This document shows positions 4,285-62,053 of a stretch of DNA of 64,000 nucleotides, one piece after another. Below the pieces are notes generated by a model that ran no database searches, was not told where the DNA came from, and was given only the letters and a program-made list of their open reading frames with translations. Position numbers and translations under genes: made by a program. This stretch comes from Escherichia phage BYEP02, in sequence record OR757454.1. One strand, written 5' to 3'. Positions within the stretch are counted from its first letter, which is position 1. Each line of letters begins with the position of its first letter.

Positions 4285-6612
4285 ATGATGGAACTAATTA
4301 CAGAATTATTTGACGAAGATACTACTCTTCCGATTACAAACTTAAATCCAAAGAAGAAAATACCACAAATTTTTTCAGTTCATGTTGATGACGCAATTGA
4401 ACAACCAGGCTTTCGTTTATGTACCTATACATCTGGAGGTGATACTAATCGTGATTTAAAGATGGGCGATAAAATGATGCACATTGTTCCTTTTACATTA
4501 ACTGCTAAAGGTTCAATTGCTAAATTGAAAGGTCTTGGTCCAAGCCCAATTAATTATATCAATTCAGTTTTTACTGTTGCAATGCAAACAATGCGTCAGT
4601 ATAAAATTGATGCCTGCATGCTTCGTATTCTTAAGTCTAAAACCGCTGGTCAAGCTCGACAAATTCAAGTTATTGCTGATAGACTTATCCGTAGTCGTTC
4701 AGGTGGCAGATACGTCCTTCTTAAGGAACTCTGGGATTATGATAAAAAGTATGCATATATTCTTATACATCGCAAAAATGTATCACTAGAAGACATTCCA
4801 GGAGTTCCGGAAATTAGTACCGAGCTCTTTACTAAAGTTGAATCGAAGGTCGGTGATGTTTATATCAATAAAGATACTGGAGCTCAAGTAACTAAAAATG
4901 AGGCAATTGCAGCATCTATTGCAAGGTCGGTGATGTTTATATCAATAAAGATACTGGAGCTCAAGTAACTAAAAATGAGGCAATTGCAGCATCTATTGCA
5001 CAAGAAAACGATAAACGTTCTGACCAAGCTGTAATCGTTAAAGTTAAAATTTCCCGTAGAGCAATTGCACAAAGTCAATCATTAGAGTCTTCTAGATTTG
5101 AAAGTGAATTATTCCAGAAGTATGAATCTACAGCAGCTAATTTTAATAAACCAGCTACTGCACCTTTAATTCCCGAAGCAGAAGAAATGAAAATTGGAAT
5201 TAATTCATTAGCTTCTAAAACTAAGGCAGCAAAAATCATTGCCGAAGGAACTGCAGATGAACTTCATTATGACTATAAATTCTTTTCAAAAAGTGAGGTT
5301 AATGAAGTTTCTGAAAAAATTAAAGATGTAATTCTTAATGCGATTAAAAATGAACCAACCACTTCAATAAAATGTTTAGAGAAATACGCAGCAGCTGTTA
5401 ATCAATTCTTTGAAGAATATAAAGATAATTGGCTTGATAAACATAATAAAACACGTAAAGGACAGCCAGATGAAGTCTGGGAAGAAATAACTAAAAATTC
5501 CTGGAACGCGACAAAAACTAAATTCCTCAAAAGAATGATTTATAGTTTCTCTGGAATTGGTGCAGGTCCAATGATTGATATTACTATTGCCCGTGATGGT
5601 TCTAAATATACTCCATCACAAAAGCGCGGCATTAGAGAGTATTGCGGTTCAGGATATACTGACATCAATAATCTTCTTTTAGGACGCTACAATCCAGAAC
5701 GATATGATGTAATGAGTGAAAAAGAAATTGAATCTGCTATAAATAACTTAGATTCAGCTTTTGAAAATGGTGACCGCATACCGGAAGGCATCACAGTTTA
5801 TCGTGCTCAAAGCATGACTGCTCCTATATACGAAGCATTAGTTAAAAATAAAGTATTCTATTTCAGAAATTTTGTATCTACTTCTTTAACTCCTATCATT
5901 TTTGGACGTTTTGGATAGTTAAAAATAAAGTATTCTATTTCAGAAATTTTGTATCTACTTCTTTAACTCCTATCATTTTTGGACGTTTTGGAATTACACA
6001 TGCTGGTATTGGTCTTTTAGAACCAGAAGCTCGCAATGAATTAACAGTTGATAAAAATGAAGAAGGAATAACTATTAATCCAAACGAAATAAGAGCGTAT
6101 AAAGAAAATCCTGAATACGTTAAAGTTCAAATAGGATGGGCAATTGATGGAGCAATCCAAACGAAATAAGAGCGTATAAAGAAAATCCTGAATACGTTAA
6201 AGTTCAAATAGGATGGGCAATTGATGGAGCTCATAAAGTTAATGTTGTATATCCAGGAAGTCTCGGAATAGCAACAGAAGCTGAAGTTATTCTACCGCGT
6301 GGATTGATGGTCAAAGTTAATAAAATAACTGATGCTTCTAATAATGACGGAACAACATCTAATAATACAAAACTCATTCAAGCTGAAGTTATGACCACGG
6401 AAGAGCTCACCGAATCGGTAATCTATGATGGAGACCATTTAATGGAAACTGGTGAATTGGTTGCAATGACAGGTGATATTGAAATAGAAGACAGAGTTGA
6501 CTTTGCATCATTTGTTTCATCAAATGTTAAACAGAAAGTAGAATCATCTCTTGGAATTATTGCGTCTTGCATAGATATTGCAAACATGCCTTACAAGTTC
6601 GTTCAAGGATAA
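4285..6612 (+). CDS. alt: ADP-ribosyltransferase Alt, interrupted by three 77-nt duplications
   Basis: N-terminus MELITELFDEDTTLPITNLNPKK recognised as T4 Alt; TATAAATA late promoter 21 nt upstream; total length fits about 682 aa plus three 77-nt inserts. Confidence 0.8.
4846..4999. repeat. 77-nt tandem duplication
   Basis: Period 77 verified; in alt. Confidence 0.9.
5841..5994. repeat. 77-nt tandem duplication
   Basis: Period 77 verified; in alt. Confidence 0.9.
6075..6228. repeat. 77-nt tandem duplication
   Basis: Period 77 verified; in alt. Confidence 0.85.
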
Positions 6613-17854: not shown

Positions 17855-17883
17855 GTCTAAATACCATGTAATAAATATATCTA

Positions 17884-17891
17884 TATTTATA
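17884..17891 (-). promoter_or_regulatory. late promoter core TATAAATA (uvsW)
   Basis: Reverse-strand motif about 30 nt upstream of uvsW ATG. Confidence 0.55.
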
Positions 17892-17904
17892 CTGAGGAAA
17901 TATT

Positions 17905-18661
17905 ATGATAGATAAAGATTATATTGCAGAGCTGAAGGCTCTTGATGATAATAAAGAAGCTAAGGCTAAATTAGCTGAATATGCTGAACAGTTTGGTATA
18001 AAGGTCAAAAAGAATAAATCTTTTGATAATATCGTTATTGATATTGAAGAAGCCCTCCAGAAGCTCGCTAGTGAACCTATGCCAGAGACTGATGGGTTAT
18101 CTATTAAAGACTTAATTGATGCTGCTGATGCCGCAGAGGGATTAAAATATGACGATGAAGAAGTCAATCCAGAAGCAGCACTTCTGATTGATTCTCCGGT
18201 TAAATCTGACATTAAAATTGAAGTAGTAGAAATGGATAAAATTCCCGAAAATACCGATGTTTTGATTGAAGATACTCCTTTTGTTGAAGAAAAATTTGAA
18301 CAGGCTGTAGCTGAGATTATTGAATCTGAAAAGCCGTCTGTATTTACTCTTCCGGAAAACTTTAGTCCGAATCTTCAGCTGATTGGAAAAAATCCAGGAT
18401 TCTGCACTGTTCCTTGGTGGATTTATCAATGGATAGCTGAAACTCCGGATTGGAAATCTCACCCAACTAGTTTTGAACATGCACTGTTCCTTGGTGGATT
18501 TATCAATGGATAGCTGAAACTCCGGATTGGAAATCTCACCCAACAAGTTTTGAGCATGCGTCAGCACACCAAACTTTATTTAGCTTAATTTATTACATTA
18601 ACCGTGACGGATCAGTTTTAATTCGTGAAACACGCAATTCTTCTTTCGTAACATTAAAATA
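17905..18661 (+). CDS. inh: Inh-like protein (inhibitor of prohead protease), one 77-nt duplication inside
   Basis: About 226 aa after removing the duplicate, matching T4 Inh length; position between uvsW and hoc; acidic. Confidence 0.45.
18404..18557. repeat. 77-nt tandem duplication
   Basis: Period 77 verified; in inh-like gene. Confidence 0.9.
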
Positions 18662-18671
18662 AGGATAACTT

Positions 18672-20167
18672 ATGACTTTTACAGTTGATATAACTCCTAA
18701 AACACCTACTGGAGTTATAGATGAGACTAAGCAGTTTACTGCTACGCCCAGTGGTCAAACTGGAGATGGACCTATTACCTATGCTTGGACTGTTGATGAT
18801 GCACCGCAGGAAGAAACGTCTGCAACTTTTAGTTATGTACTAAAAGGTCCTGCTGGACAAAAGACTATTAAGGTAGTTGCAACAAATCCAGTTCCTGATT
18901 CTGAAGCTGAAACAGCTGAAATTAGTACAACTATCACAGTTCAAAATAAGACACAAACAACTACTTTAGCTGTAACTCCTGGTAGCCCTGATGCTGGAGT
19001 GATTGGAACTCCAATTGAATTTACCGCTGCCTTAGCTTCACAGCCATCAGGTGCAAACGCTACATATCAATGGTACGTTGACGGTTCTCCTGTGGGCGAA
19101 GCAACTGGCACTACATTCAATTACACTCCTGACGCAAGCGGAGTTAAAACAATTAAGTGTGTAGCTCAAGTAACCGCGACAGATTATGATGCAAAGGAAG
19201 TTACTTCTAATGAAGTGTCACTGACTGTTAATAAGAAAACACAGACAACTACGTTAGCCGTAACTCCTGCTAATCCTCCAGCAGGAGTTATTGGAACCCC
19301 AGTTCAATTTACTGCTACCTTGGCTTCACAGCCACCAGGAGCGTCTGCTACGTATCAGTGGTATGTTGACGGTTCTCTGGTCGATGGAGAAACTACTACT
19401 ACATTTAACTATACTCCTACCACAGTTGGAGCTAAAACAGTTAAGTGTGTAGCGCAAGTAACTGCAGAAAATTACAATGAAAAGGAAGTTACTTCTAATG
19501 AAGTATCATTGACTGTTAATAAGAAAACAATGAATCCACGGGTTACATTGACTCCTCCTTCTATTAACGTTCAGCAAGATGCTTCGGCTACATTTACTGC
19601 TAATGTTACGGATGCTCCAGAAGAAGCACAAATCGAATATTCATGGAAGAAAGATTCTTCTCCAGTAGAAGGGTCAACTAATGTATACACTGTTGATACA
19701 TCATCTATTGGAAGTCAAACTATTGAAGTTACTGCAACTATTACTGCAACTGATTACGATAGCAAAACTATTACAGCAGAAGGTCAAGTTCAGGTAACTG
19801 ATAAAGTTGCTCCGGAACCAGAAGGTGAATTACCTTATGTTCATCCTCTTCCACATCGCACTTCAGCTTATATCTTGATAAAGTTGCTCCAGAACCAGAA
19901 GGTGAATTGCCTTATGTTCATCCTCTTCCACATCGCACTTCAGCTTACATCTGGTGCGGTTGGTGGGTTATGGATGAAATCCAAAAAATGACCGAAGAAG
20001 GTAAAGATTGGAAAACTGAAGATCCAGATAGTAAGTACTACTTGCATCGTTACACTCTTCAGAAGATGATGAAAGACTATCCAGAAGTTGATGTCCAAGA
20101 ATCGCGTAATGGATACATCATTCATAAAACTGCTTTAGAAACTGGTATCATCTATACCTATCCATAA
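18672..20167 (+). CDS. hoc: outer capsid protein Hoc with four Ig-like domains, one 77-nt duplication inside
   Basis: Ig-like repeats (TFTVDITPKTP...; QTTTLAVTP...) and capsid-binding C-terminus ...GIIYTYP; about 472 aa after removing the duplicate. Confidence 0.85.
18949..19542 (+). repeat. diverged in-frame 297-nt tandem repeat inside hoc (two Ig-like domains)
   Basis: Two 99-codon units NKKTQTTTLAVTP...EVTSNEVSLTVNKK, roughly 80-85% identical. Confidence 0.8.
19800..19953. repeat. 77-nt tandem duplication
   Basis: Period 77 verified; 3 mismatches, all synonymous; in hoc. Confidence 0.9.
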
Positions 20168-20746: not shown

Positions 20747-21828
20747 ATGTTTAAAAAGTATAGCAGTCTTGAAAATCATTACAATTCTAAATTCATTGAA
20801 AAACTTTATAGTTTAGGATTGACTGGCGGCGAATGGGTAGCTCGTGAAAAGATTCATGGTACAAATTTCTCGTTGATTATTGAGCGCGATAAAGCAACTT
20901 GTGCTAAACGTACTGGACCGATTCTTCCTGCTGAAGATTTCTTTGGGTATTGATTATTGAGCGTGATAAAGTAACTTGCGCTAAACGTACTGGACCAATT
21001 CTTCCTGCTGAAGATTTCTTCGGTTATGAAATTATTTTAAAGAATTACGAAGATTCTATTAAAGCTGTCCAAGAAATTATGGAAACTTCAGCTGTTGTGA
21101 CTTATCAAGTTTTTGGCGAATTCGCTGGACCTGGCATTCAGAAGAATGTCGATTATGGCGATAAAGATTTTTATGTATTTGACATTATTGTTACTACCGA
21201 AAGTGGTGATGTAACTTATGTTGATGATTACATGATGGAATCGTTTTGTAATTCATTTGGGTTTAAAATCGCTCCACTTTTGGGTCGTGGTAAATTTGAA
21301 GATCTTATTAAACTTCCAAATGATTTGGATTCTGTTGTTCCGTCTTATAATTTTACCGTAGATAATGCAGGTTTAATTGACGCTAACAAATGTGTTTGGA
21401 AAGCTGAAGCCAAAGGCGAAGTATTTACCGCTGAAGGATATGTATTGAAACCTTGTTATCCTTCTTGGCTGCCTAATCGCAATCGTGTAGCCATCAAATG
21501 CAAGAATTCTAAATTTAGTGAAAAGAAAAAGTCTGATAAGCCTATTAAAGCTAAAGTTGAACTGTCAGAAGCTGATAACAAATTGGTGGGGATTTTAGCT
21601 TGTTACGTTACACTAAACCGAGTAAATAACGTTATTTCTAAAATTGGCGAAATTGGTCCAAAAGATTTTGGAAAGGTGATGGGACTAACTGTTCAAGATA
21701 TTTTGGAAGAAACTTCTCGTGAAGGTATTACTCTAACTCAAGCGGATAATCCTTCTTTGATTAAAAAGGAATTAGTTAAAATGGTACAAGATGTACTTCG
21801 TCCGGCTTGGATTGAATTGGTAAGTTAA
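20747..21828 (+). CDS. rnlB: RNA ligase 2, one 77-nt duplication inside
   Basis: EKIHGTNFS adenylation-lysine motif; 334 aa + 77 nt. Confidence 0.85.
20874..21027. repeat. 77-nt tandem duplication
   Basis: Period 77 verified; 6 mismatches, 5 synonymous; in rnlB. Confidence 0.9.
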
Positions 21829-60157: not shown

Positions 60158-60244
60158 GCGAGAATGGTCAAATTGGTAAAGGCACAGCACTTAAAATGCT
60201 GCGGAATGATTTCCTTGTGGGTTCGAGTCCCACTTCTCGCACCA
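60158..60244 (+). tRNA. tRNA-Leu (anticodon TAA), type II
   Basis: Cloverleaf read by eye: anticodon loop CTTAAAA, long variable arm, GGTTCGAGTCC T-arm, CCA encoded. Confidence 0.8.
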
Positions 60245-60249
60245 AATTT

Positions 60250-60323
<74 letters not shown>

Positions 60324-60477
60324 ATTTAATTTACTCCGTGTAGCTCAGTTTGGTAGAGCGTCTGCTTTGGGAGCAGAATGTCGCAGGTTCAAATCCTGCA
60401 ATTTAATTTACTCCGTGTAGCTCAGTTTGGTAGAGCGCCTGATTTGGGATCAGGAGGTCCAAGGTTCAAATCCTTGT
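60324..60477. repeat. 77-nt tandem duplication (diverged copies) over tRNA-Pro
   Basis: Period 77; 10 mismatches in the 3' 40 nt, arranged as compensatory pairs in the anticodon and T stems. Confidence 0.85.
60334..60400 (+). pseudogene. truncated tRNA-Pro-like copy lacking the 3' acceptor strand
   Basis: Copy 1 of a 77-nt duplication; 5' 37 nt identical to tRNA-Pro, anticodon and T stems differ by compensatory changes. Confidence 0.6.
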
Positions 60478-60484
60478 ATGGAGA
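60411..60484 (+). tRNA. tRNA-Pro (anticodon TGG)
   Basis: Acceptor CTCCGTG/TATGGAG (G-U pairs); anticodon loop TTTGGGA; T-arm GGTTCAAATCC. Confidence 0.75.
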
Positions 60485-60486
60485 CT

Positions 60487-60576
60487 GGAGGCGTGGCAGA
60501 GTGGTTTAATGCACCGGTCTTGAAAACCGGCAGTCGCTCCGGCGACTCATAGGTTCAAATCCTATCGCCTCCGCCA
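60487..60576 (+). tRNA. tRNA-Ser (anticodon TGA), type II
   Basis: Acceptor GGAGGCG/CGCCTCC; anticodon loop CTTGAAA; long variable arm; CCA encoded. Confidence 0.8.
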
Positions 60577-60685
60577 GTTTTGCTGATTTAGCTCAGTAGG
60601 TAGAGCACAGTCGCTCCGGCGACTCATAGGTTCAAATCCTATCGCCTCCGCCAGTTTTTGCTGATTTAGCTCAGTAGGTAGAGCA
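60532..60685. repeat. 77-nt tandem duplication over the tRNA-Ser/tRNA-Thr junction
   Basis: Period 77; one T indel between copies; makes a chimeric pseudo-tRNA. Confidence 0.9.
60583..60653 (+). pseudogene. chimeric tRNA fragment (Thr 5' part fused to Ser 3' half)
   Basis: Created by the 77-nt duplication at 60532-60685; no matching acceptor stem. Confidence 0.6.
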
Positions 60686-60735
60686 CCTCACTTGTAATGA
60701 GGACGTCGGCGGTTCGATTCCGTCAATCAGCACCA
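60660..60735 (+). tRNA. tRNA-Thr (anticodon TGT)
   Basis: Acceptor GCTGATT/AATCAGC; anticodon loop CTTGTAA; T-arm GGTTCGATTCC; CCA encoded. Confidence 0.8.
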
Positions 60736-60736
60736 A

Positions 60737-60811
60737 GGCCCTGTAGCTGGAAGGTTCAAGCAAGCGACTCATAATCGCCAGATGGTGGTTCAATTCCACC
60801 CAGGGCCACCA
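60737..60811 (+). tRNA. tRNA with anticodon CAT (Ile2-type or Met)
   Basis: Acceptor GGCCCTG/CAGGGCC; loop CTCATAA; T-arm GGTTCAATTCC; D-arm atypical. Confidence 0.6.
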
Positions 60812-60820
60812 AATTAATTT

Positions 60821-60907
60821 GGGGAGTTATCCCGTAGAGGTAGCGGTGTGGACTGTAAATTCATTGTCATTGCGACTCGGGTGGTTCGACTCCACCACTC
60901 CCCACCA
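60821..60907 (+). tRNA. tRNA-Tyr (anticodon GTA), type II
   Basis: Acceptor GGGGAGT/ACTCCCC; anticodon stem GTGGA/TTCAT with two G-U pairs; loop CTGTAAA; long variable arm; T-arm GGTTCGACTCC. Confidence 0.55.
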
Positions 60908-60911
60908 ATTT

Positions 60912-60986
60912 GGATGTGTAGCTCAATGGCAGAGCGATCGCCTGTTAAGCGATTGGTTATAGGTTCGAATCCTATCACGTCCGCCA
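60912..60986 (+). tRNA. tRNA-Asn (anticodon GTT)
   Basis: Acceptor GGATGTG/CACGTCC; D-arm GCTC..GAGC; anticodon stem ATCGC/GCGAT, loop CTGTTAA; T-arm GGTTCGAATCC. Confidence 0.65.
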
Positions 60987-61100
60987 AATTTGTGACAACT
61001 GTCACATTAATATCTACTTGACGCGATTATAGGGGTTGAACTGATCACTCTTCTCTTAATTTCGTGTGAAGACATCTTGATTGTTGGAGTAGGTATTAAT

Positions 61101-61176
61101 GTGGCCGTAGTTCAGTTGGTAGAACTCGAGATTGTGATTCTCGTAGTCATGGGTTCGACTCCCATCGGTCACCCCA
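61101..61176 (+). tRNA. tRNA-His (anticodon GTG)
   Basis: Acceptor GTGGCCG/CGGTCAC; anticodon stem CGAGA/TCTCG, loop TTGTGAT; T-arm GGTTCGACTCC. Confidence 0.7.
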
Positions 61177-61180
61177 ATTA

Positions 61181-61256
61181 CGGGGCATAGCTCAGAAGGA
61201 AGAGCAAGGACCTTCTAAGTCCTAGGTCGTAGGTTCGATCCCTACTGCCTCGACCA
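61181..61256 (+). tRNA. tRNA-Arg (anticodon TCT)
   Basis: Acceptor CGGGGCA/TGCCTCG; anticodon stem AGGAC/GTCCT, loop CTTCTAA; T-arm GGTTCGATCCC. Confidence 0.75.
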
Positions 61257-61885: not shown

Positions 61886-61934
61886 AAACACTTGCCTTAG
61901 CAGGTGGAACCCCGACAAGGTTGCCGCAAGGCTT

Positions 61935-61962
61935 AGCCCCGACCGAAAGGTTGGGGCTTTTT
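61935..61962 (+). terminator. terminator-like hairpin AGCCCCGACCGAAAGGTTGGGGCT + T5 (81-nt unit, copy 1)
   Basis: GNRA-loop hairpin plus U-tract. Confidence 0.55.
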
Positions 61963-62015
61963 GGTATAACACTTGCCTTAGCAGGTGGAACCCCGACAAG
62001 GTTGCCGCAAGGCTT

Positions 62016-62043
62016 AGCCCCAGCCGAAAGGTTGGGGCTTTTT
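62016..62043 (+). terminator. terminator-like hairpin, 81-nt unit copy 2
   Basis: Same hairpin with two substitutions, plus U-tract. Confidence 0.55.
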
Positions 62044-62045
62044 AG

Positions 62046-62053
62046 TATAAATA
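62046..62053 (+). promoter_or_regulatory. late promoter core TATAAATA (internal-protein-like gene)
   Basis: Exact motif 37 nt upstream of ATG 62090. Confidence 0.55.

Follow-up and report, generated by a model that had tools for sequence, protein, structure and literature searches.

The stretch of Escherichia phage BYEP02 DNA analysed here (64,000 nucleotides of record OR757454.1; hereafter the window) carries, in the region of the head genes, inh - hoc - 24.3/24.2 - rnlB in the same order as T4 and pSs-1, with inh upstream. As assembled, the hoc open reading frame that starts at 18672 on the plus strand ends at 19991 after 439 aa, the last of them C-terminal nonsense, and the true C-terminus lies in a second frame, 19907-20167. 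The frame is broken because of a tandem duplication of 77 nt (19799-19875 and 19876-19952, 96% identical). Deletion of either copy gives the identical gene of 1419 nt and protein of 472 aa; an artefact of 77 nt and a Hoc of about 472 aa had both been claimed in the original prediction and were confirmed by repeat search and reconstruction. The features of the locus are as follows.

18672..19875, plus strand: first part of the hoc coding sequence, codons 1-401, to the end of the first 77-nt copy (ORF list; 472-aa reconstruction; 98.1% aa identity to the pSs-1 'Hoc-like head decoration' protein).
18672..18944, plus strand: Ig-like domain 1, aa 1-91 (aligns to T4 Hoc 1-91; modelled beta-sandwich strands at residues 4-91).
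18945..19232, plus strand, in domain phase (18936-19223 in repeat-search phase): repeat unit 1, type A, equal to Ig-like domain 2a, aa 92-187 (PKD / BiPBP_C Pfam matches; clusters with the first units of two- and three-unit Hocs).
19233..19520, plus strand, in domain phase (19224-19511 in repeat-search phase): repeat unit 2, type B, equal to Ig-like domain 2b, aa 188-283 (PKD match at residues 196-265).
19521..19799, plus strand: Ig-like domain equivalent to domain 3 of T4 Hoc, aa 284-376 (aligns to T4 Hoc ~188-280; Ig_3 / I-set matches at 289-373; modelled strands at 290-376).
19876..19952, no strand assigned: second copy of the 77-nt duplication, an assembly artefact that shifts the frame of hoc and creates the false 439-aa ORF 18672-19991 (ORF list; repeats; pSs-1 blocks).
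19953..20167, plus strand: second part of the hoc coding sequence with the stop codon (residues 273-472 align, nearly identical, to T4 Hoc 177-376).

The broken 439-aa frame, 18672-19991, matches at 100% identity a protein deposited as 'PKD domain protein [Escherichia phage BYEP02]' (P0042), whose annotation probably inherits the 77-nt artefact. The repair has some value for annotation: in OR757454.1 the artefact splits the hoc gene, which bears no label beyond 'PKD domain protein'. The region of hoc with the duplication measures 468 nt here versus 391 nt in the best-matching phage records. At approximately 55 places in the 64 kb, about 1 per 1.2 kb, a segment of exactly 77 nt is duplicated in tandem, and most of these duplications have copies that are 96-100% identical (88-100% overall); examples are found at 1274-1427, 4846-5000, 18403-18559, 19799-19952, 20873-21027 and 60322-60474. 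When the window is aligned with pSs-1, it splits into blocks, and adjacent blocks share 77 nt of pSs-1 sequence at their ends; this indicates, at the level of sequence, that these duplications are assembly-graph segments joined without trimming of a k = 77 overlap. Where the two copies of a duplication differ, the joined segments appear to have come from slightly different variants. Many genes are broken in this way, including uvsW, inh, hoc, rnlB and some tRNAs.

The repaired gene is the hoc of a Tequatrovirus (T4-like phage). Its only strong match among solved structures is T4 Hoc (5VF3 chain Z and others; E = 1e-206), and this match falls into two stretches, residues 1-190 on T4 1-190 and residues 273-472 on T4 177-376, the pattern expected from one extra copy of domain 2. 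The second stretch (404 bits) includes the homologue of the capsid-binding C-terminal domain (T4 Hoc ~281-376), while Pfam matches to PKD, Ig_3, I-set and related families confirm the N-terminal string of Ig-like domains. Structure was modelled on P0010, a 472-aa homologue with A-B units that is 95% identical to the repaired window Hoc. The model contains four beta-sandwich domains (~1-91, 92-187, 188-283 and 284-376; block pLDDT mostly 87-96) followed by a C-terminal alpha/beta domain of lower confidence, and its top Foldseek matches in the PDB are arrays of four Ig domains (Dscam1 Ig1-4, ICAM-5 D1-D4 and Sidekick Ig1-4). Structure prediction had been proposed as a check on a protein with four Ig-like domains and a capsid-binding C-terminus; this architecture is supported by the four sandwiches of the P0010 model and by the Foldseek arrays, Pfam matches and T4 Hoc alignment.

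Two adjoining units of 288 nt (96 codons) were found in hoc by repeat search at 18936-19223 and 19224-19511, with a spacing of 288 and 78% nt identity. Tandem Repeats Finder places the repeat at 18951-19529 (period 288, 2.0 copies, 80% matches, score 760). A direct count, in the frame set by the hoc start at 18672, gives 225/288 identical nucleotides and 72/96 identical amino acids (75%) between the units, and the longest exact run common to both is 24 nt. The edges of the units coincide with the modelled domain edges, residues 92-187 and 188-283. Adjacent units, a period of 288 (3 x 96) and one domain per unit identify the repeat as an in-frame tandem domain duplication. The original prediction was correct in this respect but not in the details of size: units of 297 nt, or 99 codons, were claimed, while Tandem Repeats Finder, repeat search and direct count all give 96 codons, and the observed identities (78% nt, 75% aa) lie just under the ~80-85% that had been proposed. 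Similarly, the predicted span of 18949-19542 (594 nt) represents ~2.06 periods of 288 rather than 2 x 297, because the similarity at an offset of 288 overshoots the second unit by a few codons, fading after ~19240.

The T4 protein has a single unit at this position. T4 hoc is annotated in NC_000866 as encoding 376 aa, the length given in the original prediction, and the window Hoc with its 472 aa is exactly 96 aa longer. The original prediction also gave T4 Hoc three Ig-like domains, in agreement with a published structure of three plus a C-terminal capsid-binding domain (PMC10385173). Gene and locus are shared between T4 Hoc (NP_049793, 376 aa; PDB 5VF3, 8T1X and others) and the window; however, T4 has one domain-2 unit (type C) and three Ig-like domains whereas the window has two units (A and B) and four. 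The proposed alignment to T4 Hoc finds one 96-aa unit there and not four domains of the window's length. In a four-way alignment, the Hocs of the window and pSs-1 contain in domain 2 one additional block of 96 aa that is missing from those of T4 and vB_Eco_Geo. The pSs-1 protein (YP_009111000-series locus pSs1_00190, 472 aa) has the A-B architecture and length of the window Hoc, with 98.1% aa and 96.8% nt identity, and both properties recur in ime09, HP3, slur02, phiD1 and other 472-aa Hocs. Records of the pSs-1 type differ from the window hoc by point differences only and are without the 77-nt artefact. Hocs of 568 aa (e.g., Escherichia phages UGKSEcP1 and UGKSEcP2) have the same repeat family at the equal position, but contain three units, usually A-C-B, and five Ig-like domains as compared to the two units of the window. 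Fokine et al. reported in 2023 that Hoc homologues share a conserved C-terminal domain but vary in their string of Ig domains, which can number up to ten (PMC10385173). These are distant homologues (the Hoc of Serratia phage Muldoon has 10 Ig-like domains and that of PG7 has one), whereas here closely related phages differ in how many copies of one particular domain they have.

The longer Hoc is, from the sequences available, ordinary: it is common to more than 100 sequenced relatives, ancient and not peculiar to BYEP02. All 60 of the 60 tblastn matches listed were full-length over 472 aa, at 91-98% identity, and all were in isolate genomes; carriers include pSs-1, EPIMRB01, JEP6, ime09, HP3, slur02/04/11/13, phiD1, fPS-90 and the PYps phages. 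A hoc of the window's type is found in ~650 records. The 570 tblastn records at ≥80% coverage are unfit as a count of four-domain proteins, as one-unit subjects align to both units of the query. A 120-nt query centred on the junction between the units, which matches in full only where at least two units adjoin, detected the junction at ≥80% coverage in 117 records, which is a minimum, since junctions that have diverged escape megablast. This junction also matches, with 85% identity, at 1501-1619 in Mosigvirus mar005p1 (OZ035759.1), and there are two such places in OZ035759.1; multi-copy domain 2 may hence extend beyond Tequatrovirus. In a large protein collection, the 120 cluster representatives listed fall into length classes of 376/377, 468/472 and 567-570 aa, and the public series of 376, 472 and 568 aa corresponds to one, two and three copies of the unit. 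The four-Ig allele is already known: GenBank has contained the 472-aa form at the latest from the pSs-1 record (KM501444 / NC_025829) onwards. A literature search found general remarks on variable Ig number but no publication describing a four-Ig Hoc in T4-like phages or the 376/472/568 series within Tequatrovirus; the population-level pattern of this series is the sole mildly new angle.

We cut 123 Hoc sequences into units of 96 aa and clustered these units, which grouped by type across phages and not by phage. Three types were distinguished.

Type A: core motif GSPV.EAT; takes the first position in almost every Hoc with several units.
Type C: core motif DDSQVGGET; sole unit of T4 Hoc.
Type B: core motif GSLVDGETTTT; usually last.

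The second unit of the window, of type B, falls into one cluster with the final units of Hocs that have three, and also with the only unit present in certain Hocs of 376 aa, for instance that of fPS-65. Architecture C was the most frequent (55/123 Hocs), followed by A-C (22/123), A (16/123), B (7/123), A-B, to which the window and pSs-1 belong (5/123), and A-C-B (4/123), the remainder being mosaics or unclassified. Hocs with one unit occur as A-only, B-only, C-only or an A/B chimera. In the 376-aa Hoc of vB_Eco_Geo, the first third is A-like and the remainder is of type B, a fusion that is the expected product of unequal crossover between A and B. Between the two window units, dS is ~0.64, dN is ~0.16 and dN/dS is ~0.26, and 18 of the 24 amino acid differences map to loops or linker of the P0010 model. 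These substitution rates, the unit types and the vB_Eco_Geo chimera argue that the duplication is old, that purifying selection acts on both copies and that recombination alters the copy number and composition of domain-2 units, although the direction of single events, gain or loss, can only be surmised. The idea of a diverged natural domain duplication, put forward in the original prediction, is borne out by its presence in independent genomes, the 78% nt identity and the dS of ~0.64. We consider it highly probable that the locus is a Tequatrovirus hoc in which domain 2 of T4 is represented by two old, diverged and constrained copies of 96 codons (A then B), giving four Ig-like domains in 472 aa, as part of a copy-number polymorphism made by recombination.

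Other origins for the repeat were considered. Ig-like modules shuffle between phage proteins, and the extra domain could have come from outside hoc as an Ig or PKD module of another gene or of a distant phage. Module swaps are indeed seen in hoc, as P0043 (472 aa) and P0082 (567 aa) have much more divergent units at the same positions. For BYEP02, however, the two units share 75% identity over the whole length and in equal phase, and unit B belongs to one cluster series with domain 2 of T4; foreign acquisition is rejected on these grounds and is very improbable. A recent duplication, specific to the BYEP02 lineage or its immediate ancestors, would agree with a repeat that is tandem, in-frame and exactly the size of a domain. 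This explanation is slightly less probable still and is rejected by the dS of ~0.64 and the clustering by unit type: A and B are each closer to units of other phages than to each other, and both also stand alone in 376-aa Hocs and flank the C unit in 568-aa Hocs. The least probable explanation, to which we attach almost no weight, is an assembly error in which the repeat was expanded like the ~55 artefactual duplications of the window, one of them inside hoc, as the artefacts are all 77 nt and mostly 96-100% identical whereas the repeat in hoc has units of 288 nt that are 78% identical and have no exact run above 24 nt in common, is contained in a single block (18480-19875) that aligns colinearly and without gaps to pSs-1 at 96.6%, shares its two-unit architecture with more than 100 independently sequenced genomes, and remains a gap-free, two-unit 472-aa protein in the independent assemblies of pSs-1, ime09, HP3, slur02, phiD1 and many others.

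In T4, Hoc is a dispensable decoration protein, bound as a monomer at the centre of the hexamer (gp23*) through its C-terminal domain, and its ~180 A fibre of Ig-like domains helps dispersal and weak adhesion to bacterial or mucosal surfaces (PMC10385173). In domain 3 of Hoc, one substitution is enough to change binding to fucosylated glycans and persistence on mucus (PMC9271167). In the window protein, the C-terminal domain would similarly dock at the hexamer centre of the major capsid protein and the Ig-like string would project from the head, with the domain 2 of T4 present as two diverged copies, type A then B, to give four Ig-like domains. Homologous or unequal recombination between similar units has probably produced a standing polymorphism of 1, 2 or 3 copies (376, 472 and 568 aa) and of mosaics. 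Judged from the ~180 A four-domain fibre of T4 (PMC10385173), the extra domain would lengthen the fibre by roughly 4-5 nm, and a second domain-2 module with different loops and surface could help the phage to adhere weakly to glycans or to the surface of cells. By analogy with T4, we infer that the result would be a longer fibre with added adhesion surface. Alleles with one, two and three copies in otherwise near-identical phages form a natural series in which fibre length or domain-2 surface can be set against adhesion, and are relevant to uses of Hoc for display and to work on phage adherence to mucus.

It is also conceivable, although we regard this as rather unlikely, that domain 2 of Tequatrovirus Hoc is a small cassette system, in which homologous or unequal recombination shuffles 1-3 copies of the old types A, C and B, kept in fixed order, perhaps as an undescribed adaptive polymorphism of populations. 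If so, alleles with fibres of different length and with different surfaces on their adhesion loops would coexist in natural populations. The domain-2 positions of P0043 and P0082 are occupied by far more divergent units, e.g. AVEIGTATTFTANVSNQP..., which point to an occasional swap-in of distantly related Ig modules beyond the reshuffling of A, C and B.

Several other observations were made in the window. The segE homing endonuclease gene, which lies between inh and uvsW in T4 (L001 3558-4175), is absent from this place in the window (17855-17905) and in pSs-1, where uvsW leads directly to inh. Apart from the hoc repeat, the only long tandem repeat that is not of 77 nt is found at 61887-62050 (period 81 nt, 2.0 copies, 96% matches); no Rfam family matched this repeat at the gathering threshold. 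It follows the tRNA cluster at a short distance downstream and has a stem-plus-T-run motif at its end. Ten Rfam tRNA matches are present in 60158-61253, one of which, at 60341-60399, is truncated (model positions 8-63) and sits inside the 77-nt duplication at 60322-60474; hence, tRNA genes are probably over-counted or damaged in OR757454.1.
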